A DNA stretch of 37,495 nucleotides from an uncultured Actinomycetota bacterium. GTDB lineage: Bacteria; Actinomycetota; Humimicrobiia; Humimicrobiales; Humimicrobiaceae. Positions 5,004 through 14,804 of the stretch are shown here, piece after piece. A program made the position numbers and the translations under genes. The first letter of the stretch is position 1. Each line of letters opens with the position of its first letter. The notes under the pieces were generated by a model. That model was not told the origin of the DNA, did not search any database, and worked only from the letters and a program-made list of their open reading frames with translations. Location: positions 1 to 37,495 of the forward strand of contig CAZGTW010000006.1 of the NCBI GenBank assembly GCA_964528815.1. The letters run 5' to 3'.

Positions 5004-5032
5004 ATTATACATTTTTATCTTTTTCTTATCAA
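5004..5032 (-). promoter_or_regulatory. Consensus sigma-70-type promoter for rpmH-rnpA (TTGATA-N17-TATAAT)
   Basis: The minus strand reads TTGATA (5032-5027), a 17-nt spacer, then TATAAT (5009-5004), about 45 nt upstream of the rpmH start. Confidence 0.6.
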
Positions 5033-5296: not shown

Positions 5297-5330
5297 GTTA
5301 TCAACAGTTGTGGAAAAAACTGTTGATAAC
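5297..5330. promoter_or_regulatory. DnaA-box-like cluster: inverted pair of TTATCAACA flanking a TTTTCCACA box (candidate oriC-left / dnaA autoregulatory site)
   Basis: The sequence is GTTATCAACAG (5297-5307), TGTGGAAAA (5309-5317, which is TTTTCCACA on the minus strand, one mismatch to TTATCCACA), then CTGTTGATAAC (5320-5330). The outer 11-mers are perfect reverse complements. The cluster lies in the AT-rich rpmH-dnaA spacer. Confidence 0.6.
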
Positions 5331-5450
5331 TTAAAAAATGCCGCTGTAGAGCATGTCAAAACACTACAAGTCCGGTTGCATTATATCTTAAAAATAATAA
5401 TTTCGGGCTGTTAAGAACTTTATTTTTTGGAAAGATTTGAAAAAATGAAT

Positions 5451-5479
5451 TTGATAATTAAAATGACATCAACTATAAT
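5451..5479 (+). promoter_or_regulatory. Consensus sigma-70-type promoter (TTGATA-N17-TATAAT) facing the GHKL-wHTH gene and dnaA
   Basis: TTGATA at 5451-5456, a 17-nt spacer, and TATAAT at 5474-5479. The hexamers and spacing are identical to the divergent rpmH promoter. It lies about 120 nt upstream of the ATG at 5600. Confidence 0.55.
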
Positions 5480-5599
5480 TTTTCCATTACTTCAGGCGGA
5501 TTTTTATTCAAATTTTAATTGTATGAATAATATCTGCTTTCCGGGCCGGATATATAAATAGAACCTTTATTAAATTATTTTTTCGCAAATGACCTTATT

Positions 5600-6511
5600 A
5601 TGCAAAATACGCCTGAAATAAATAACCAGAACGGTTTACAGGGTATCAGGGAAGATGGTTTTTCCATTTGCGGAAGGATTGCGGTGTATGATAACCTTAA
5701 AAGCATTCCAAGAATAATTGATTTTAATTATGTTACCATACAGCATTTCCTTGACGAGGTTCCCCAGAAAACATACCTTTTTTCCCGCGAACTGGGGGGC
5801 AGGATACCATATACGATAATTAAAGAGGTTGTTGAAAACCTTATCCATGCAAGTTTCAATGAAATAGTAATAACAATCATGCAGAGTGGTAATCATATTA
5901 TTGTTTCGGACCAGGGCCCGGGTATTGAAAATAAGGAAAAGGCTTTCCTTCCTGGTTACTCGTCTGCAACCAAAAGCATGAAAAAATATATAAGGGGGGT
6001 CGGCTCCGGCTTGCCCATAGTCAGGGAGACTATTATTTTTTCAGGCGGAAATGTAGATATTACTGATAATATAAAGAAGGGCACCGTTGTTTCTTTGAGG
6101 ATCGAGGAAGGTGAAAATATCAATGGAAATATTCTGCAGACAGGCACAATTGGGCATCAGGCCGCCCAGCAGGGTGCTGCCCAGGGTATAAAAGAACCCA
6201 GAACCGACGCCGAGCCAAAAACGCCGGTCCCGTCCCAGAAAAAAGATAAACCGCCTGAAAAACAAAAAGTAGAAGAGTTTGACAGCCTCAAGCTTTCCAT
6301 AAGGCAGATAAAAATACTTTCACTTGTCCTTGAGCTGGATGAGACCGGACCATCAAAAATTGCAAAAGAGCTCGGATTCAGTCTTTCAACATCTTACAGG
6401 GAACTTATTTTCCTTGAAGAATCCGGTTTGCTTGTGATGACAGAGTCCGGCAAGAGACAGCTTACCGATACGGGCAAAAAATGTCTTGAATATTATTCAA
6501 ATAGTTTTTAA
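5600..6511 (+). CDS. Hypothetical GHKL (histidine-kinase-like) ATPase domain protein with C-terminal winged-helix HTH
   Basis: 303 aa with Bergerat-fold motifs: N-box EVVENLIHA, G1 DQGPGI, G2 GVGSGLPI, and GT(VVSLRI). There is no DHp or phospho-acceptor His region. A Q/A/P/K-rich linker precedes a MarR/ArsR-like wHTH (LSIRQIKILSLVLELDETGPSKIAKELGFSLSTSYRELIFLEESGLLV). The start is uncertain: the ATG at 5600 lacks an SD, while an in-frame GTG at 5684 follows GGAAGGA. Confidence 0.7.
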   Translation: MQNTPEINNQNGLQGIREDGFSICGRIAVYDNLKSIPRIIDFNYVTIQHFLDEVPQKTYLFSRELGGRIPYTIIKEVVENLIHASFNEIVITIMQSGNHIIVSDQGPGIENKEKAFLPGYSSATKSMKKYIRGVGSGLPIVRETIIFSGGNVDITDNIKKGTVVSLRIEEGENINGNILQTGTIGHQAAQQGAAQGIKEPRTDAEPKTPVPSQKKDKPPEKQKVEEFDSLKLSIRQIKILSLVLELDETGPSKIAKELGFSLSTSYRELIFLEESGLLVMTESGKRQLTDTGKKCLEYYSNSF

Positions 6512-6520
6512 TATATTTAC

Positions 6521-7864
6521 ATGGATGACCTCAACAGTATATGGAAGAAAGTGCTCGATAATGTTAAAGACAAGGTAAATACCCCTACTTTTAAAACATG
6601 GTTTGAGCCCATTAAGCCAATATCTATAAAAAAAAACCTGGTTACGGTATCTGTTAACAGCCCCTTTGCCAAAGAATGGCTTGAGTCCAGATATCTTCAG
6701 ATGCTGCTTGAGTCTGTCCAGAAAGCAATTGATATTTCTGCCAGATTAACCATCTCTGTTGATGCAGGAATTTCTGACAAGGACCGGCGCACAGGCGATG
6801 ACGAGCCAGGCATAAAAACACCCAAGTCGTCGCCATCTTCTTCGATTGGTTTTAATTCAAAATATACCTTTGATTCCTTTGTTGAAGGAACCGGCAACAG
6901 GTTCGCCTATACAGCCGCCCAGGCTGTCAGCGAAAAGCCCGGAAAGGCGTATAACCCGCTTTTTATATATGGCGGCGTCGGTCTTGGTAAAACACATTTG
7001 CTTCATGCTATAGGGCAATATGTTTTAAAATATCATTCAAGTTTTGTTGTTAAATATGTATCTGCAGAAAAATTCTTAAATGATTTCATAAATGCATTAA
7101 GATATAAAAATATAATTTCCTTTAAAGAAAGCTATAGAAACAATGACATCCTCCTGGTTGATGATATACAGTTCCTTGAAGAAAAAGAAGCCAGCCAGGA
7201 AGAATTTTTTCATACTTTTAATGCGCTGCATGGCACAAACCGCCAGATAGTGCTTTCAAGCGACAGGCCGCCCAGGGACCTTTCCACGCTTGAAGACAGG
7301 CTCCGTTCACGGTTTGAATGGGGGCTTGTTACAGACATACAGCCGCCCGATCTCGAGACAAGAATAGCAATACTTGACAAGTATGCCGAGAGGGAAAACC
7401 TTAAGGTTGACAGGGAGATAATAAATCTTATCGCTGAAAGAGTAACCACAAATATCAGGGAGCTGGAGGGTGCGGTTACCAGGGTTGTTGCATTTTCATC
7501 TCTTACCGGCACCCCTGCAGATATAGACACCGCAAGAAAAGTGTTAAAGGATATGATGCCGGAAGACAGCCAGGCCCGGGTGACAAGCCAGCGCATTTTA
7601 AAAGAGGTTTCCAAATATTTTTCAATACCTATCAATGTTCTTGTTGGAAGTAAAAGAAACCAGTATATCGCCCACGCCCGCCAGGTTGCAATGTATCTTT
7701 GCCGCGAACTTACAAGCGATTCTCTTCCCGCTATAGGCAGGGTTTTTGGAAACAGGGACCACGCTACTGTAATTTATGCAATTACAAAAATAAATGACCT
7801 TATTTCCAAAGAAAGTGACGTGTATAAACACGTAAAAGAGATAACAAACAGGGTAAGGTCCTGA
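6521..7864 (+). CDS. dnaA: Chromosomal replication initiator protein DnaA
   Basis: 447 aa. Domain I reads WKKVLDNVKDKVNTPTFKTWFEPIKP. AAA+ motifs are Walker A GGVGLGKTHLLHAIG and Walker B LLVDDIQFL. The domain IV DNA-binding signature is AHARQVAMYLCRELT..SLPAIGRVFGNRDHATVIYA. Confidence 0.97.
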   Translation: MDDLNSIWKKVLDNVKDKVNTPTFKTWFEPIKPISIKKNLVTVSVNSPFAKEWLESRYLQMLLESVQKAIDISARLTISVDAGISDKDRRTGDDEPGIKTPKSSPSSSIGFNSKYTFDSFVEGTGNRFAYTAAQAVSEKPGKAYNPLFIYGGVGLGKTHLLHAIGQYVLKYHSSFVVKYVSAEKFLNDFINALRYKNIISFKESYRNNDILLVDDIQFLEEKEASQEEFFHTFNALHGTNRQIVLSSDRPPRDLSTLEDRLRSRFEWGLVTDIQPPDLETRIAILDKYAERENLKVDREIINLIAERVTTNIRELEGAVTRVVAFSSLTGTPADIDTARKVLKDMMPEDSQARVTSQRILKEVSKYFSIPINVLVGSKRNQYIAHARQVAMYLCRELTSDSLPAIGRVFGNRDHATVIYAITKINDLISKESDVYKHVKEITNRVRS

Positions 7865-7966
7865 CTGTCAGCAACTGTCTTAAAACCTGTCAGTAACACG
7901 GGTTGAAACTGTGTTATTTTGTTAATAAAAACAGCACACCGCGGCCCCTGTCAATAAAATGCCATG

Positions 7967-8061
7967 TTTTCAACAGTTTTTAACTGTTTTTTCAACAGCT
8001 CTGCAGGTTTTTATGATATACAGACAACCCTGTTTTCTGTTTTTATTAACATTATCAACAG
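7967..8061 (+). promoter_or_regulatory. Three direct TT(A/T)TCAACAG DnaA-box-like repeats in the dnaA-dnaN spacer
   Basis: TTTTCAACAG at 7967-7976 and 7989-7998, and TTATCAACAG at 8052-8061. This is the same 10-mer family as the inverted pair at 5297-5330. Confidence 0.55.
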
Positions 8062-8170
8062 GCATTATTATTACTACTATTTATTTAAATTAATATTCTA
8101 TTATAATAGAGAAAATGTTAATAATGTTTCCATTTTACTTAAACCTTATTGTTTATCTTTAATAAAGAAA
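8062..8170. other. Strongly AT-rich tract (candidate DNA unwinding element of oriC)
   Basis: The roughly 110 nt directly after the last box is almost entirely A/T (e.g. ATTATTATTACTACTATTTATTTAAATTAATATTCTATTATAATAG). It has the location and composition typical of a DUE in dnaA-dnaN type origins. Confidence 0.45.
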
Positions 8171-8178
8171 GGTAAAAA

Positions 8179-9291
8179 ATGAAAATCCAGACAACCAGAG
8201 ACGAGGTTCTTAATAAGATTTTATTTGTAAGCAGGGCAATGTCCCCAAAGGTTTCCAATTTTATATTAAACGGCATAATGCTGGAAGCCGAGGAAACAAC
8301 ATTAAACATATACGGTACCGACCTGGAAACAAGCATAAAAAGCAATATCCCTGTAAAAGTGGATGTGCCGGGAAGGGTGGTGGTTCCATCAAAGATACTT
8401 ACTAATATATTAAAAAGTTTTCCGGAATCAAAAATAGAGATAGAGCTCCTGGGCTCGACAAACGAGCTCAAAGTTACCTGCCAGAAAGCAAATTTTATGC
8501 TTAACACTTTTTCGCTGGAAGAATATCCGCAGTTTCCGTCAATAAAAAAAGCAGGCTCTTTTAAGATAAAAATCCAGGATTTAAAATACCTGATCTCAAA
8601 AGTCCAGAAAGCAAGCTCCACAGATGAAAGCAGGGTGGTTTTGACAGGCATTCTGCTGGACCTTTCAGGTGAAAAACTAAAACTTGCCGCAACAGACAGC
8701 TACAGGCTTGCTGTTGCTGAAAGCGGTGTGGCATATACAGGGGAGCCGGTGAAAGTAGTGGTGCCTTCAAGAGTGCTGGACACTATTGCAAAAAGCGAAT
8801 CACATAATGGTGAAATAGAGCTTAATATAGAAGAAAACCAGATAAGTTTTTATATAAATGATGAAAAAGGCATGCAGACAACAATAATATCGAGACTTTT
8901 ATCGGGCAAGTTCCCCGATTATGAAAACCTGATTCCTGAAAACTTCAACCACAGCATAATCATAAAAAGGGAAGTAATGCTCGATGTCATAAAAAGGATA
9001 TCATCCATATCACAGGACAACATCCCGGTAAAGCTTGATATAGAGAACGGAAGAATCATAGTCTCCATGAATATAAGGGAAGTTGGCAGCTCCAGCGAAG
9101 ATTTTGAGGTCAGCTATGGGGAAGAGAACATCCAGATAGCTTTTAATCCGGATTTTTTAATAGACGGATTAAACACCATAGACGATGAAAAAATAATCTT
9201 CAATATTGTTGAACCCTTAAAACCCATTATGATAAAACCGGAAAAATTCGAAGGGCTTCTTTACCTGTTAATGCCCATACGTATATCCTGA
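8179..9291 (+). CDS. dnaN: DNA polymerase III beta sliding clamp DnaN
   Basis: 370 aa of three-domain clamp length. Sequence includes MKIQTTRDEVLNKILFVSRAMS, ATDSYRLA and LLSGKFPDYENLIP, and ends YLLMPIRI. It directly follows dnaA. Confidence 0.96.
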   Translation: MKIQTTRDEVLNKILFVSRAMSPKVSNFILNGIMLEAEETTLNIYGTDLETSIKSNIPVKVDVPGRVVVPSKILTNILKSFPESKIEIELLGSTNELKVTCQKANFMLNTFSLEEYPQFPSIKKAGSFKIKIQDLKYLISKVQKASSTDESRVVLTGILLDLSGEKLKLAATDSYRLAVAESGVAYTGEPVKVVVPSRVLDTIAKSESHNGEIELNIEENQISFYINDEKGMQTTIISRLLSGKFPDYENLIPENFNHSIIIKREVMLDVIKRISSISQDNIPVKLDIENGRIIVSMNIREVGSSSEDFEVSYGEENIQIAFNPDFLIDGLNTIDDEKIIFNIVEPLKPIMIKPEKFEGLLYLLMPIRIS

Positions 9292-9310: not shown

Positions 9311-10237
9311 TTGAAACAATCCATTAAAAAAAGCATAGGAATAATAGGCGCTGGCCGCCTTGGCACTACGCTTGCTGCAGCGATAAACAAAAAAAAGATA
9401 AGCGGCATTGAACTCGTGGCAATCTCTTCAAAAACCGGCGATGCGCTTATCAGGGCGCAAGATATAATAGGAACGGTAAAAAATAACCTGATTTTTACTA
9501 CTGACAATAATAAGTGCGCCGCAGAAGCAGATTGTATTTTTATTTGCACGCCGGATGATATTATTGAAAATGTATGTAAAAGCATAGTCCAATCAAACCC
9601 CGGGGATATTAAAGCCAAGCTTTTCATACATTTCAGTGGTGCTAAAACACTAAAAGTTCTTTCAAGCGCAAGCGAAGCGGGTGCACATACCGCATCCATA
9701 CACCCGATTAAGTCCTTTGCGTCCATTAATGATTCAATAGAAACATTGCCGGGAACGATTTACGGGGTTACTTACCCCGTAAAACCGCACAGCGAAAGCA
9801 GGAAGTTTATAGACTATTTTGTTTTAAGCATGGGCGGCACTATAATCGAAGTGGAAGATGAAAAAAAATCGCTTTATCATGCGGCAGCATGCGTGGCCTC
9901 GAATTATCTTGTTGCCCTTGTAAATTATGCAGTGAGCATACATGAGGGCATTGGTATAAAAAAAGAAGACTCATTGAGGGCTCTTTCCGGCCTTATTGAA
10001 GGGACCATTGCAAATATAAAAAAGCTCGGGCCTCAGCAGGCGCTTACCGGACCAATTGCTAGAGGCGACACCGGTACGGTTGAAGAACATCTCGCCAACT
10101 TCAGCAAATATCTCGGGCCGGACCGGGACCTTGTTTACAGCATAATGGGCTATGAGACAGCAAAGCTTGCCTGCCAAAACGGGTGGATAAAAAAGCCGGT
10201 GCTTGAAGAATTCAGAAAAATTTTTAAAATTCAGTAA
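9311..10237 (+). CDS. Rossmann-fold NAD(P)-binding + DUF2520-like protein (possible PanG-type ketopantoate reductase)
   Basis: The N-terminal dinucleotide fold is IGIIGAGRLGTTLAAA. The C-terminal half (AAACVASNYLVALVNYA...LTGPIARGDTGTVEEHL) matches the DUF2520 pattern as I recall it. It has a TTG start and lies immediately upstream of panC-panD. Confidence 0.7.
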   Translation: MKQSIKKSIGIIGAGRLGTTLAAAINKKKISGIELVAISSKTGDALIRAQDIIGTVKNNLIFTTDNNKCAAEADCIFICTPDDIIENVCKSIVQSNPGDIKAKLFIHFSGAKTLKVLSSASEAGAHTASIHPIKSFASINDSIETLPGTIYGVTYPVKPHSESRKFIDYFVLSMGGTIIEVEDEKKSLYHAAACVASNYLVALVNYAVSIHEGIGIKKEDSLRALSGLIEGTIANIKKLGPQQALTGPIARGDTGTVEEHLANFSKYLGPDRDLVYSIMGYETAKLACQNGWIKKPVLEEFRKIFKIQ

Positions 10238-10314
10238 AAGCAGTAAAACAGGCAAAGCGCCATGACTCTTTAAGAAAAACTCTCATTTAATCTTTGGGAA
10301 AAGGTGGAACAGGA

Positions 10315-11220
10315 TTGGAAATCATTTCAAACATAAGTAAAATGCAAAAAATTTCCCGGTCCCTGTTTCGTAATGGTGAAACAGTGGGGCTTGTCCCGAC
10401 CATGGGCTATCTTCATGAAGGGCACATAAGCCTTATAAAAAAAGCCAGGAAAAATGCTGCAAAAGTAATAACCAGTATATTTGTAAACCCCACACAGTTC
10501 GGCCCCGGAGAGGATTACGAAACTTACCCGAGAGACATTGAAAGGGACAGTGAAATAGCTAAAAAAGCCGGCACGGATTATGTTTTTGTGCCCGGGGCGA
10601 AAGATATGTATCCAGCGGATTTTGCCACCTTTGTCGAAGTAAAGGAAATGGACAGTATTATGTGCGGGGCTTTTCGCCCCGGCCACTTCAGGGGCGTATG
10701 TACAGTTGTTCTTAAGTTATTTAATATCATATATCCGTCAATGGCATATTTCGGCCTTAAGGACTACCAGCAATACCTTATAATTAAAAAAATGGCAGCA
10801 GAACTTAACCTTCCGGTAAAAATCGTTGGTTGCCCGATAATAAGAGAAAAAGACGGCCTTGCAATGAGCTCAAGGAACAAGTATCTTACAGAGAAGGAGC
10901 GCAGAAGCGCCACAGTATTATACAGGAATCTGATATTTGCAAAAGCTGGAATAATTGAAGGCGAAAGGGATATGCTGAAACTGCAGAAGAGCTGCATTAA
11001 TAATATTAAAAGTAATGAAAGTATCTCAAAAATCGAATACTTTGATTTCAGGGACGGCACAACACTCAAAGAGATAAAGTCGCTTGAGCGGGCAGAAGGT
11101 ATGAAAATTCCGGAAAAATTACTGGTTGCAACAGCGGCCTATATTGGCAGGACCAGGCTTATAGACAATATTGTTTTAAATATTAAAAATATTTGTAAGC
11201 CGGGCGCTAAAGGTGTTTAA
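10315..11220 (+). CDS. panC: Pantoate--beta-alanine ligase PanC
   Basis: VGLVPTMGYLHEGHISLIKKAR (HIGH-type motif) and a family-typical FGLKDYQQ. The track start is a TTG at 10294. I prefer the TTG at 10315, which is preceded by AAGGTGG (10301-10307) and gives the usual short N-terminus LEIISNISKMQK. The start is uncertain by 21 nt. Confidence 0.92.
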   Translation: MEIISNISKMQKISRSLFRNGETVGLVPTMGYLHEGHISLIKKARKNAAKVITSIFVNPTQFGPGEDYETYPRDIERDSEIAKKAGTDYVFVPGAKDMYPADFATFVEVKEMDSIMCGAFRPGHFRGVCTVVLKLFNIIYPSMAYFGLKDYQQYLIIKKMAAELNLPVKIVGCPIIREKDGLAMSSRNKYLTEKERRSATVLYRNLIFAKAGIIEGERDMLKLQKSCINNIKSNESISKIEYFDFRDGTTLKEIKSLERAEGMKIPEKLLVATAAYIGRTRLIDNIVLNIKNICKPGAKGV

Positions 11221-11327: not shown

Positions 11328-11708
11328 GTGTTTATAAATGTTTTAAAGTGCAAGATACACAGGGCGACGGTAACTGATGCACAGATACATTATCATGGCA
11401 GTATTACTATTGACAGGGAGCTTATGGACAGGGCAGGGCTGCTGCCATTTGAGAAAGTAATGGTTGTCAGTCTTGACAGCGGGGAAAGGCTTGAAACATA
11501 TGTAATCGAAGGCGCAAGGGGAAGCGGTGAAATATGCCTGAATGGAGCTGCTGCAAGGAAAATCCTGAAAGGCGACACAGTCATAATAATTGCTTTTGTA
11601 ACAATAGATGCAAGGGAATATGCCACATTTGAGCCTGTTATAGTACATGTAGATGCCAACAACAGAATCGTAGAAGAGGACAACGGGGAAACAGATGACC
11701 AATGTTAG
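11328..11708 (+). CDS. panD: Aspartate 1-decarboxylase PanD (pyruvoyl-dependent)
   Basis: MFINVLKCKIHRATVTDAQIHYHGSITID carries the Gly-Ser self-cleavage site. It is 126 aa with a GTG start after GGGGAAGG. Confidence 0.94.
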   Translation: MFINVLKCKIHRATVTDAQIHYHGSITIDRELMDRAGLLPFEKVMVVSLDSGERLETYVIEGARGSGEICLNGAAARKILKGDTVIIIAFVTIDAREYATFEPVIVHVDANNRIVEEDNGETDDQC

Positions 11709-12583
11709 AAAAACCTGCAGGAAAGAAAATTAAAAAAAATACCCTCTTTTTTTGCACCCTTTTTTTGCTGCCTGCAAGCCTGTTTTTTATTTTATCCTGC
11801 AGCAATATAAAAATAACAACCCCTGACGCCGGTTTTATACAAATGGAGCCGGATTCAAGCACAGGAAACAGCAAAGAAGGCACTACCGGTGAGGGTTCGG
11901 CAAATACCACAGCGCCTTCATCCGGAAAAGATGTAATTTATTTTTTTGACTACAGTTCTGTAGAAATCGAGCCGACACAGTCAATAGATCTTTTAATAAA
12001 GAACTGTAACATTTATATGGATATTTACGGCGACATTATTGTTCTTGGTGAAATCGAAAATCTTTCAAATGCCTGGAAAACAAATATCGAAATTACTTTT
12101 AACTTTAATGACAGCTCGGGCATGGAAATAGATTTTGTAAAAACCCCTGCGTTTGCAAGCTATTTGCAGCCCGGCAGCATTATGCCTTTTTATCTTGTAT
12201 ATTCAGAAAGGTCAAACTATATAAATATATCCAGTGTTAAAATAGGCACGAATTTCAGGAATTATAATAAAAGCCCAAAAGGGCTGCCGATTGTTGCAGA
12301 AGAAAAGAGGGGTTTTATAAATAAAATATTTAATGTAAGCGGCAAAGTCACAAATATTGGAGACAACAGCATAGAGGACCTGAAAATATTCTGCACATTC
12401 TATAATTTAAAGAACCAGGTGGTTTTCATAAAGAAATGCTACATAAAAGAGGACATGATGGGCCCGCTTGAGGAGCAGGACTTCAGGCTCGAAGTGCTGA
12501 TGGATGAATATCTTCCGGAATTTACTCACTACAGATTTGGAGCATTTTTCAGAGATTCGCTTAAAATCCCGGACCAGGAGTAA
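11702..12583 (+). CDS. Hypothetical lipoprotein with two tandem related beta-rich domains
   Basis: Signal peptide with lipobox FFILSC. Its ATG overlaps the panD stop by 7 nt. The two halves share the pattern xGx(I/V)xNxxxxxxxx(I)xxTFxN...F.L.V (LGEIENLSNAWKTNIEITFNFN versus SGKVTNIGDNSIEDLKIFCTFYN). Confidence 0.65.
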   Translation: MLEKPAGKKIKKNTLFFCTLFLLPASLFFILSCSNIKITTPDAGFIQMEPDSSTGNSKEGTTGEGSANTTAPSSGKDVIYFFDYSSVEIEPTQSIDLLIKNCNIYMDIYGDIIVLGEIENLSNAWKTNIEITFNFNDSSGMEIDFVKTPAFASYLQPGSIMPFYLVYSERSNYINISSVKIGTNFRNYNKSPKGLPIVAEEKRGFINKIFNVSGKVTNIGDNSIEDLKIFCTFYNLKNQVVFIKKCYIKEDMMGPLEEQDFRLEVLMDEYLPEFTHYRFGAFFRDSLKIPDQE

Positions 12584-12697: not shown

Positions 12698-14098
12698 TTG
12701 AAAAAATTAAAATCATCCAAACAGGTTTTTATACCAGCAGCAATATTAACAATATTATTGTGCTGTTTTGTGCTTGTTTCCTGTTCCTTTTTCAGTGAAA
12801 GTGAAAATGCGCAGGAACAGGCAGTCTCTACAGAAGCAGAAGCATCACCCCAGGAAGAGCAGCCCGCAGATGTCTTACTGATAGAGGAAGTAACGATTTG
12901 GGACAAGCTGGAGCCCGGGGAACAGATACAGCTAATGGACACGATAGAAAAATATACTGCATTAAACCAGCAAATAAAAATAAACACCCGTCATTTCCGG
13001 AGCGAGGAAGAGCTTGTCGATCAGTTCAGGGCAGCAAGCCTGGCTGGTGCAGGGCCGGAAATTGTTCTTGCCAGGCTGGAGTCCGCATCAGTTCTTGCAG
13101 GCGCAAGTGTTTTAAAGCCCATTACTGACGACATGGCATATCCTGATATTCTCGAAGGGCTTGCTGAAATATCTGCTGTCGAAAATAAAAGCTATGCCAT
13201 ACCCTTCAGGGCTTTTGATTTCCTCATGCTCTTTTATAACCGTGATTTTATCAGTGAAGCGCCGGAAAGTTTTGAGGAACTTATAGAATACTGCAGGGAA
13301 GTAAATAACCCGAAAGAGGAAACTTATGGTTTCATACTGAATTCTTCTGAAGCAGACTGGATACTTCCATTTATTGGAGGATACCAGGACTGGGTATATG
13401 ATTATTCAACAGGGGCCATAAATCTTGACACCCAGGCAACAGTTAAAACACTGGAATTTTTAACTATGCTTTATAACCAGGAAAAAGTGGTTCCGCAAGG
13501 TTATGAATATGAAGATATCAACAATGCTTTTAAAGAAGGCAGGGCCCACATGATAATAAATGGGAACTGGGCCGTGGAAGAATATATTGAAAATGGCCCG
13601 GACTTCGGCATTGCAGAAATTCCTGTTGTATGGGGAGGATTGAAAAATCCCACCCCGATGATAGACGGCATAGGATTTATGATAAATGCCAATACATTCG
13701 GTAAATCACTTGAAAATACAAAAAGCTTTATTGAATACCTGATGTCAGAAGAAATACAGCAGAAATGGACAGAAAATACGGCCACAATGCCATCTTTAAA
13801 ATCAATGGCTTCCAGCCCTTTTATTTCTTCAAATCAGTATTACCTTGCCCAGGCCAGGCAATCAGCAATTTGCAGGGGCAAACCTCCCGGGGAAGCATTA
13901 ATAGCAATACGTGAAGCATTGATGATGAATTTAAAAAATGTGCTAAGCGGCAGCATCATACCTGAAGATGCTGTAAAGAAAATACAGGAAGACGTTATAA
14001 AGCTGAGATCCGGTTCAGAAACAGGGACAGATGCGTTTACGGGCGGGCCGGACGAAAATGCCGATACTTCATTAACAAGCGAAAGCCTGGCGGAATGA
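12698..14098 (+). CDS. Extracellular solute-binding lipoprotein (ABC family 1, sugar-type)
   Basis: 466 aa with lipobox VLVSC and a TTG start after AAGGGAAG. SBP_bac_1-like features include WDKLEPGE...KYTALNQQIKIN, GPEIVLA, AIPFRAFDFLMLFYNRD and INGNWAVEEY. The window contains no permease or ATPase genes. Confidence 0.8.
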   Translation: MKKLKSSKQVFIPAAILTILLCCFVLVSCSFFSESENAQEQAVSTEAEASPQEEQPADVLLIEEVTIWDKLEPGEQIQLMDTIEKYTALNQQIKINTRHFRSEEELVDQFRAASLAGAGPEIVLARLESASVLAGASVLKPITDDMAYPDILEGLAEISAVENKSYAIPFRAFDFLMLFYNRDFISEAPESFEELIEYCREVNNPKEETYGFILNSSEADWILPFIGGYQDWVYDYSTGAINLDTQATVKTLEFLTMLYNQEKVVPQGYEYEDINNAFKEGRAHMIINGNWAVEEYIENGPDFGIAEIPVVWGGLKNPTPMIDGIGFMINANTFGKSLENTKSFIEYLMSEEIQQKWTENTATMPSLKSMASSPFISSNQYYLAQARQSAICRGKPPGEALIAIREALMMNLKNVLSGSIIPEDAVKKIQEDVIKLRSGSETGTDAFTGGPDENADTSLTSESLAE

Positions 14099-14120: not shown

Positions 14121-14804
14121 TTGGACGATTTAAAAGAAACAAATCAGGTTAACAGTAATGAATACGGCAACGATGATGCTGAAGAAGAAAATTTCCAGGG
14201 CACAGCAGAAAGCCGTGTTCGCGAGCAAAGGGACCAGGATGATAAAAGGCTTGTTACACTTTCCCAGAAAGGGGACAAAGCAGCTTTTGAGAAACTTGTA
14301 AGGATGTATTCAAAGTATGTCTATACCAACGCCTTTTTTATGCTGCGCGATACCCATGAAGCAGAGGATGTCAGCCAGGAAGTCTTTGTAAAAGTATATC
14401 TGTCAATAAAGAATTTCAGGGGGCTTTCAAGCTTCAAGACGTGGCTGAGAAAACTTACCATAAATACATGTATAGACAAGTTAAGGATAAAATCAAAAAC
14501 AACTGATAAAAAAGTGAGCCTTGAAGCCTTTGAAGAAAATTATGACGTTGTTTTTACGGACCTCAACCATAATATAGAGCGGAACTTCATAGCAAGGGAG
14601 ACAATAAAAGAGGTACTGGATATAATTGTGAACCTGGAAGAAAGCTACAGGATACCTCTTATCCTGAGAGACTTCCAGGATTACAGCTACAGGGAAATTG
14701 CAATACTCATAAAAAAGCCCATCGGGACAGTAAAAACTAATATCCACAGGGCAAGAAAAATAATCAAGGATAAATTGAAATATGAGAAAGAGAAGAAAAT
14801 CTGA
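14121..14804 (+). CDS. ECF-type RNA polymerase sigma-70 family factor with acidic N-terminal extension
   Basis: Region 2 reads AFEKLVRMYSKYVYTNAFFMLRDTHEAEDVSQEVFVKVY...FKTWLRKLTINTCIDKLR. Region 4 reads YRIPLILRDFQDYSYREIAILIKKPIGTVKTNIHRARKIIK. TTG start. Confidence 0.88.
   Translation: MDDLKETNQVNSNEYGNDDAEEENFQGTAESRVREQRDQDDKRLVTLSQKGDKAAFEKLVRMYSKYVYTNAFFMLRDTHEAEDVSQEVFVKVYLSIKNFRGLSSFKTWLRKLTINTCIDKLRIKSKTTDKKVSLEAFEENYDVVFTDLNHNIERNFIARETIKEVLDIIVNLEESYRIPLILRDFQDYSYREIAILIKKPIGTVKTNIHRARKIIKDKLKYEKEKKI

Follow-up and report, generated by a model that had tools for sequence, protein, structure and literature searches.

A stretch of 37,495 nucleotides (nt) from an uncultured Actinomycetota bacterium of the family Humimicrobiaceae (assembly GCA_964528815.1, contig CAZGTW010000006.1, positions 1–37,495 of the forward strand), which in its entirety is called the window here, carries between rpmH and dnaA a gene for a protein of 303 amino acids (positions 5600–6511 including the stop codon, forward strand). 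This gene, here called gene X, is an ancient, lineage-wide neighbour of dnaA, and its product joins an N-terminal ATP-binding domain of the GHKL type to a C-terminal winged helix–turn–helix (wHTH); the domains themselves are known, and the family that they form is undescribed and dedicated to dnaA. Protein X may be a DNA-binding regulator that depends on ATP, is dedicated to dnaA or oriC and acts on the expression of dnaA and/or on the initiation of replication. This is the most likely interpretation, and we give it about an even chance; we infer its components, namely the ATP dependence, the binding to DNA, the target and the effect on replication, from sequence.

The linkage to dnaA was followed through about 95 loci, taken from genome contigs, exact-protein look-ups and 80 metagenome loci, all of which were reached through X itself and which span 35–92% identity to X and a locus GC content of 0.28–0.69. 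In every locus with enough downstream sequence dnaA lies immediately downstream of X and on the same strand, and no counter-example was encountered among these approximately 95 loci. The two genes are 9–12 nt apart in the clade of the window, and elsewhere they are separated by up to about 75 nt or overlap; where gene calls are available, the neighbours of X are invariably rpmH or dnaN upstream and dnaA downstream. The origin region is rearranged in loci of the Coriobacteriia type, namely L012 (L012:1–10873) and those of cultured Adlercreutzia (L019 and L020), in which gyrB, recF and dnaN are found upstream on the opposite strand and the forward strand reads X, dnaA, rpmH, rnpA, yidD, yidC and jag; rpmH and dnaN have swapped sides, and X therefore stays with dnaA. 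Such a comparison of gene order in relatives had been set beforehand as a check by an earlier note made on this DNA from its letters alone, and it came out strongly in favour of the linkage: X directly precedes dnaA in all the relatives that were compared, rearranged origins included. Because this synteny holds, X is an ancient feature of the lineage and not a local insertion, and the wording of the earlier note, which had presented the gene as inserted, is to be abandoned. A mobile or inserted element was also rejected on the grounds that X is lineage-wide and syntenic, that the composition of the window is unremarkable and that the window matches neither HATPase_c_4 nor AlbA_2. After the synteny test, the best reading of what X may be is still the one that the earlier note had suggested from sequence, namely a protein that binds DNA in an ATP-dependent way and regulates dnaA or initiation in a manner not described before.

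Gene X is a genuine protein-coding gene under purifying selection, and its delimitation is supported by the open reading frame, Pfam matches, homologues, alignments and a structure model. Its ATG is the sole possible start upstream of the conserved core and its TAA stop codon occupies positions 6509–6511, leaving a gap of 9 nt to the dnaA ATG at 6521, so that the coordinates given in the earlier note are correct. Selection acts on the protein, since of 115 columns that are invariant in amino acid among six loci just 13 are also invariant in codon. An apparent frameshift in the X orthologue of locus L002 (L002:6244–6260, on the ENLIHA motif) was traced to a masked run of N in the record and is not a mutation.

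A word-indexed search retrieved more than 120 full-length homologues of X with 53–100% identity, all from uncultured Actinomycetota and labelled only as 'ATP-binding protein', 'histidine kinase', 'hypothetical' or 'predicted transcriptional regulator'. When 1.84 billion cluster representatives were searched exhaustively with a profile, the matching clusters, defined at 50% identity, numbered 346 below E = 1e-30 and 476 below 1e-10. The homologues number in the thousands, which is incompatible with the description of X as an orphan in the earlier note. Searches seeded with distant members led to metagenome-assembled genomes (MAGs) labelled Coriobacteriia or Actinobacteria and to cultured isolates ('MULTISPECIES: ATP-binding protein [unclassified Adlercreutzia]'), and several members are annotated by the Joint Genome Institute (JGI) as 'anti-sigma regulatory factor (Ser/Thr protein kinase)'. 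The family ranges from Humimicrobiaceae/Hydromicrobium-type MAGs through Coriobacteriia MAGs to cultured Adlercreutzia, the taxon labels of the MAG homologues being the names given by their depositors, and X is a typical member of a large uncharacterized family in early-branching anaerobic Actinomycetota. The architecture has no curated Pfam or NCBIfam family, and 96 diverse members match only the generic HATPase_c model and assorted wHTH models. A full-text literature search, which is not proof of undescribed status, returned no description of a GHKL–wHTH protein linked to dnaA. The longer homologues (390–491 amino acids) have longer N-termini or linkers only, and no extra domains were found in them. 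A role in defence was rejected, the PADLOC matches being solely to the Csa3/CasR wHTH.

The ATP-binding portion of X (residues 23–170; 5666–6109, forward strand) is composed of an N-terminal β-hairpin and helix followed by a Bergerat fold, as indicated by Pfam, by conservation, by a model with predicted local distance difference test (pLDDT) values above 90 and by Foldseek and PDB profile matches. Pfam HATPase_c (PF02518) covers residues 71–170 with E = 1.6e-11 and 45.1 bits, against a gathering cutoff of 26.4. The N box comprises Glu76, Asn80 and His83, the G1 box Asp104–Gly108, the lid residues 109–132 and the G2 box Gly133–Gly137, followed by Gly161-Thr162. Conservation was read from alignments of 20 sequences and of 96 diverse sequences; among the 96 homologues Asn80, His83, Gly97, Asp104, Gly106, Gly108, Ile131, Gly133, Gly135, Gly137, Asn157 and Gly161 are invariant, and Glu76, Glu79, Ala84 and Phe86 are at least 90% conserved. 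As the N, G1 and G2 boxes show little or no variation at these residues, the ATP site is intact throughout the family. The segment Lys112–Arg132 is unusually conserved for an ATP lid, and the variable first 22 or so residues of the protein are followed by a conserved arm, R26-I-A-x-Y30-D...S-x-P37-R38.

No match of X to HisKA or DHp was obtained with Pfam at E ≤ 1, and no conserved phospho-acceptor histidine was found in the helix formed by residues 47–64, in which position 63 mixes Arg, His and Lys and position 49 is mostly Glu or Asp. The earlier note was thus right in recognizing a Bergerat fold that carries the N, G1 and G2 boxes and has no DHp. On the evidence of fold and profile comparisons, the domain is assigned to the kinase branch of GHKL, together with histidine-kinase CA domains, BCKDK/PDK and SpoIIAB. 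The structures nearest to the ATPase of X in Foldseek are BCKDK, PDK, HK853 and CpxA (E of about 5e-6), and the family profile matches in the PDB the CA domain of KinB (2e-8), followed by YycG, CheA P4, BCKDK and SpoIIAB (E of about 1e-3), with MutL being matched around the N box only. Histidine-kinase CA domains and GHKL serine kinases (HK853, CpxA, KinB, BCKDK and PDK) have the same Bergerat fold and the same N, G1, F-like and G2 boxes as X. X differs from them in that it possesses no DHp/HisKA domain, no conserved phospho-acceptor histidine in the preceding helix and no sensor, transmembrane or four-helix-bundle domain; it has His83 in place of the N-box lysine, Glu76 at the position of the catalytic base of GHL type and a fused wHTH. 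A sensor histidine kinase was therefore rejected, HATPase_c being present but DHp absent.

The N-box segment E76-V-V-E-N80-L-I-H83-A84 aligns with the N box of MutL (NCBIfam MutL matches at 70–113, E of about 5e-6), and its E-x-x-x-N-x-x-H-A pattern is GHL-like, but with an invariant His83 in place of Asp; the corresponding residue is Asp in MutL and GyrB and Lys in histidine kinases. Membership of the GHL ATPases (MutL, GyrB, Hsp90 and MORC) was rejected because a transducer domain (ribosomal S5 fold) is absent, the GHKL domain of X leading directly into a disordered linker and the wHTH, and no MutL, GyrB or Hsp90 structure is among the top 50 Foldseek matches. The earlier note had likened the ATPase to anti-sigma serine kinases or to MutL and GyrB more than to sensor kinases; apart from the N box, it is closer to the kinase branch, histidine-kinase CA domains included, than to MutL and GyrB.

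The model used here was obtained with AlphaFold from the 96-sequence alignment (mean pLDDT 84.6, above 90 in both domains) and supersedes a poor one from 20 sequences (pLDDT 61), the fold search of which was informative for the wHTH only. It displays a β-hairpin (residues 23–44), a helix (47–64), the N-box helix (71–84) and the GHKL sandwich up to residue 168, then a linker (approximately 170–225) and a winged helix of H-H-H-β-β-H topology (226–302; pLDDT above 90 at 226–300). The linker, delimited as residues 171–225 (6110–6274, forward strand), is a low-complexity segment rich in Gln, Ala, Pro, Lys and Glu; its low pLDDT, variable length and gappy, unconserved columns agree with the disorder predicted in the earlier note.

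The C-terminal domain (residues 226–303; 6275–6508, forward strand) is, according to the model and to sequence comparisons, a winged helix of the DNA-binding type, and the MarR/ArsR-like fold put forward in the earlier note is well supported. Foldseek relates it with probability 1.0 to MarR, to AspA of pNOB8 and to Csa3, its PDB profile matches are the PhiH1 repressor, Csa3 and AdcR, Pfam wHTH families (MarR/IclR/TrmB) match 65 of the 96 family members, and PADLOC assigns it to the Csa3/CasR wHTH. The recognition helix spans residues 262–274 (with S263-T264-S265-Y266-R267) and the wing carries G284-K285-R286-x-L-T289. Both presumptive DNA-contact segments are kept family-wide, as S-[ST]-[AS]-[YH]-R at 263–267 and G-K-R-x-L-T at 284–289, and these conserved residues give indirect support to a wHTH that may bind DNA in a sequence-specific manner.

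The Csa3/CasR regulators, the wHTH of which is among the closest to that of X by both sequence and structure, follow the same logic of an N-terminal nucleotide-binding sensor and a C-terminal wHTH, but their sensor is a CARF domain, whereas that of X is GHKL and has no CRISPR context. The only full-length alignment among the top 50 PDB entries is with DIP2311 (PDB entry 3lmm; 303 columns, TMq 0.40), in which a GHKL-like domain also precedes a wHTH; the TM-score is low. We take DIP2311 to be of the COG2865 type (AlbA_2/Schlafen, HATPase_c_4 and wHTH), and a COG2865/DIP2311-like identity was rejected for X in view of the absence of any AlbA_2 or HATPase_c_4 Pfam match in X or in the 96 members.

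Around gene X, the minus strand of the window encodes mnmE, jag/khpB, yidC, yidD, rnpA and rpmH, and the plus strand X, dnaA and dnaN, followed by a DUF2520-family gene and by panC; the sign of the GC skew switches at about 4–5 kb, which is compatible with a chromosomal origin. The divergent upstream neighbour of X, rpmH (ribosomal protein L34; 4821–4958, minus strand), was recognized from its open reading frame and from tblastn conservation and position across loci, dnaA (447 amino acids; 6521–7864, plus strand) from its open reading frame and from the Pfam domains DnaA_N, Bac_DnaA and Bac_DnaA_C in orthologous loci, and dnaN (β clamp; 8179–9291, plus strand) from its open reading frame and its position across loci.

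Within the clade of the window the spacer between rpmH and X keeps a common layout, in which a promoter of rpmH, a triplet of DnaA-box variants with an adjoining AACTTAAAAAA, a second box block and the promoter hexamers of X follow one another. The promoter-like site of rpmH, detected by a promoter scan (TTGATA-17-TATAAT with the extended −10 element TGTATAAT; 5004–5032, minus strand), is supported by the k-mer AATGTATAAT, which is present in 25 of 28 clade spacers, and its extended −10 element is likewise kept in 25 of 28 loci. The triplet consists of TTATCAACA, TGTGGAAAA and TGTTGATAA (5298–5329) and the whole unstranded feature, with AACTTAAAAAA, extends over 5298–5338, as defined by k-mer conservation and spacer alignment; TTTTCCACA occurs in 22 of the 28 spacers, against a null maximum of 11. 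Beside the triplet, AACTTAAAAAA is conserved as well. Just upstream of the X promoter, conserved columns of the spacer alignment mark a second DnaA-box-like block, cTGTTgAaAACTT (5408–5420, unstranded). The promoter-like site of X itself (TTGATA-N17-TATAAT; 5451–5479, plus strand) had already been pointed out in the earlier note; it matches the consensus at 11 of 12 positions, and its hexamers align with TTGAT and TATAA blocks conserved in relatives. The leader between this promoter and the X ATG (5486–5599) is about 90 nt longer in the window and in its closest relatives, loci L021 and L002, than in other members of the clade, in which the −10 hexamer of X is only about 25–45 nt from the ATG.

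The window contains 23 copies of TTWTYMACA, a box pattern specific to the clade, where seven would be expected, with four copies in the rpmH–X spacer and six in the 314-nt spacer between dnaA and dnaN (7865–8178, unstranded). Box counts and composition indicate that the latter, which holds six DnaA-box variants and an AT-rich stretch at about 8060–8110, is likely to be the unwinding part of a bipartite oriC. The X–dnaA pair is flanked by two clusters of DnaA boxes, a layout similar to that of known bipartite origins, among them the origin of Bacillus subtilis, and by analogy the boxes on either side of the pair suggest a bipartite origin here. The X promoter is well placed for autoregulation by DnaA, and because it is flanked by DnaA boxes the expression of X is probably DnaA-autoregulated. 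Starting from the X promoter, no terminator-like hairpin was found on the plus strand until dnaA has ended, and the one at 7892–7918 (plus strand), after dnaA, is the first; since no terminator separates the genes, cotranscription of X and dnaA is plausible from the sequence, though not assured, as against the near certainty expressed in the earlier note. Shine–Dalgarno sequences are absent before X and dnaA and present before rpmH and dnaN in the window. The rpmH–X spacers of the high-GC loci (L051–L100) are long (800–920 nt), have a genome-like GC content of about 0.6 and, besides DnaA boxes, have GCCGATTCTA in common in 13 of 25 loci. A small gene or RNA that has escaped annotation might lie within these spacers.

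Cotranscription with X may be one of two ways in which dnaA is expressed, since a promoter-like element lies within the 3′ end of X. In the clade of the window the final 30 nt of X are nearly identical even where the X proteins share only 50–60% identity, and this conservation at the nucleotide level outlines a TTGAAT hexamer (6486–6491), a spacer of 17 nt and a TAATAT hexamer (6509–6514, including the stop codon of X), together occupying 6486–6514 of the plus strand and ending 6 nt before the dnaA ATG. All 35 non-redundant loci of the clade have the arrangement TTGAAT-N17-TAATAT without any change in spacer length, with a distance from TAATAT to the dnaA ATG of 6 nt in most of them and 9 nt in 12. 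Six of the 13 codon-invariant columns among the six loci mentioned above are the last six conserved residues of X. Across 33 loci the mean top-codon fraction rises from 0.53 at residues 26–290 to 0.92 at residues 291–303, and the codons of Lys294 (AAA), Leu296 (CTT), Glu297 (GAA), Tyr298 (TAT), Tyr299 (TAT) and Asn301 (AAT) are 100% invariant, whereas at least 95% codon invariance is reached in just one of 99 other columns (Mann–Whitney p = 2.6e-4). A perfect 7-1-7 palindrome, TTGAATATTATTCAA, lies at 6486–6500 and overlaps the −35 hexamer. The element scores eight of 12 against the Escherichia coli consensus and for that reason was not listed by the promoter scan; it is absent from the distant high-GC clades, which instead have a clear GGAGG before dnaA.

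The 3′-end element is a clear case of overlapping constraints on protein and DNA. As judged from its sequence, it is a candidate σ70-type promoter inside X, from which dnaA would be transcribed with no leader or hardly any, or else a regulatory site. Actinobacteria commonly have leaderless mRNAs, and the element suggests such a transcript as a source of DnaA in the clade of the window. The palindrome TTGAATATTATTCAA could be the binding site of a regulator. Translational coupling to X, or read-through from the X promoter, is possible and compatible with an internal promoter.

In the mechanism that may be envisaged for X as a regulator of dnaA or of initiation, the protein would be produced in fixed linkage with dnaA and from a promoter that has DnaA boxes on its flanks. 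Binding or turnover of ATP in the GHKL domain, probably via dimerization, would control the engagement of DNA by two tethered winged helices, which would act on DNA at the origin or in the dnaA promoter region, and the outcome would be a tuning of dnaA transcription and/or of initiation to the nucleotide state of the cell. In the clade of the window dnaA would also possess its own promoter in the last 30 nt of X, giving rise to the leaderless or near-leaderless mRNA, and the palindrome over the −35 hexamer of this promoter would be a candidate control site.

Several observations weigh against this mechanism. An operator was sought by k-mer conservation in the rpmH–X spacers of the near, high-GC and far low-GC clades and in the dnaA–dnaN spacers; the search yielded only DnaA-box variants, promoters and AT-rich runs, the motifs common to the two kinds of spacer, and to different clades, are DnaA-box variants only, and no operator candidate for X was found there. 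Nor is there another good copy of the palindrome in the window. What this search leaves is that X might recognize DnaA-box DNA, that it might bind with little sequence specificity or that the conserved face of the wHTH might contact a protein. The order of genes in the origin region is generally stable in bacteria, and part of the synteny signal could reflect inheritance of a conservative gene order and not function. Finally, the GHKL domain is closest to protein kinases, which makes phosphotransfer to a protein, instead of ATP-gated binding of DNA, a serious alternative.

Pursued to its conclusion, the kinship with kinases would make X a Ser/Thr kinase resembling SpoIIAB/RsbW or PDK, or an 'anti-initiator', that binds and/or phosphorylates a protein partner, most obviously DnaA, with the wHTH serving just as a tether to origin DNA or being itself the regulated output. 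The GHKL domain is about the size of the stand-alone anti-sigma kinases, which like X have no DHp, an N box of the E...N...H type and an ATP-binding domain of about 145 residues; its best structural matches are the serine kinases BCKDK and PDK, SpoIIAB can be aligned over the whole ATP-binding core (X 74–170 to SpoIIAB 42–136), the conserved lid Lys112–Arg132 would suit a protein-interaction surface, and the JGI labels on several members point the same way. However, X differs from SpoIIAB/RsbW in its linker and wHTH and in its linkage to dnaA, the SpoIIAB model (TIGR01925) scores 21.9 against a cutoff of 135 bits, none of the loci with gene calls has a STAS or sigma-factor gene as a neighbour of X, no phospho-acceptor can be named, and a wHTH with conserved DNA-contact residues suggests that DNA is part of the mechanism. 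Membership of the SpoIIAB/RsbW family proper was rejected on that score and on the lack of STAS or sigma partner genes nearby, and the broader kinase reading is possible, with a probability well short of even. A combination of the two ideas is also conceivable, in which X represents a new class of initiation regulator, a kinase-type GHKL domain tethered to origin DNA by its wHTH that acts directly on DnaA and, in the clade of the window, also gates the internal promoter through the palindrome; this proposal is tentative, and we regard it as rather unlikely. Were it true, X would act on DnaA in an ATP-dependent manner, by phosphorylation, by sequestration or by competition at DnaA boxes, and initiation would be coupled to the energy state of the cell across Coriobacteriia and related anaerobic Actinomycetota.

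The remaining explanations do without a role in dnaA control, and we consider both improbable. X could be an origin-proximal factor for chromosome organization or segregation, with a wHTH that binds a centromere or the nucleoid and an ATP-driven dimerizing clamp working in the manner of GHL or MORC proteins. Its N box, E76-x-x-x-N80-x-x-H-A, reads like that of MutL, GyrB and Hsp90 with the catalytic-base glutamate conserved, the structural neighbours of its wHTH include the pNOB8 centromere-binding protein AspA, the conserved N-terminal arm (Arg26, Tyr30, Pro37 and Arg38) could serve as a dimerization strap, and a cluster of DnaA boxes lies on either side of the gene at the origin. A transducer domain is nevertheless absent, fold and profile beyond the N box are nearer to kinases than to MutL or GyrB, no array of repeated sites other than DnaA boxes was found in the window, and the coupling of X to dnaA even when dnaN, rpmH and gyrB move points to DnaA and not to the origin locus. 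X could equally be a one-component transcription factor of the usual kind that controls genes outside replication, its place beside dnaA being a matter of inherited gene order; the general stability of origin gene order and the fruitless search for operators and targets are in keeping with this. Against it, the adjacency outlasts inversion or rearrangement that parts dnaA from rpmH and dnaN, it holds down to about 35% identity and from a GC content of 0.28 to one of 0.69 with no counter-example in about 95 loci, the distances between X and dnaA (9–75 nt or overlapping) are operon-like, and the X promoter is embedded in DnaA boxes.

Initiation at oriC is controlled in different bacteria by proteins such as YabA, SirA, Soj, Hda, DiaA, HobA, SeqA, MtrA, AdpA, CtrA and Spo0A, several of which are response regulators that bind oriC. 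What X presumably shares with them is a role in modulating DnaA or oriC; none of the searches made here revealed any sequence similarity between X and these regulators. We know of no DnaA regulator with a GHKL–wHTH architecture, nor of one that is universally encoded immediately 5′ of dnaA, and this architecture would be unprecedented for such a role. To our knowledge, DnaA regulators differ from lineage to lineage, and Coriobacteriia and the other early-branching anaerobic Actinomycetota are not known to have one. With an adjacency to dnaA that extends across classes and survives rearrangement and a 40-point shift in GC content, X is, on genomic grounds alone, one of the strongest candidates for such a regulator, and the hypothesis is directly testable, as the family is present in cultured, genetically tractable relatives from the human gut (Adlercreutzia).

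Some features of the wider neighbourhood may also be recorded. In the lineage of the window the recF–gyrB genes that usually follow dnaN in many bacteria are replaced by a gene for a Rossmann/DUF2520 protein and panC (9311–11220), joined in relatives by panB. Further downstream, an open reading frame of 293 amino acids (11702–12583, plus strand), with no Pfam match at E ≤ 1e-5, precedes genes for a solute-binding protein (12698–14098) and for a sigma factor of the extracytoplasmic function type (14121–14804). In a more distant locus (L013:8705–10930) the X–dnaA pair is followed by dnaN, a gene with an S4 domain, recF and genes for a DciA-family and a RemA-like protein.

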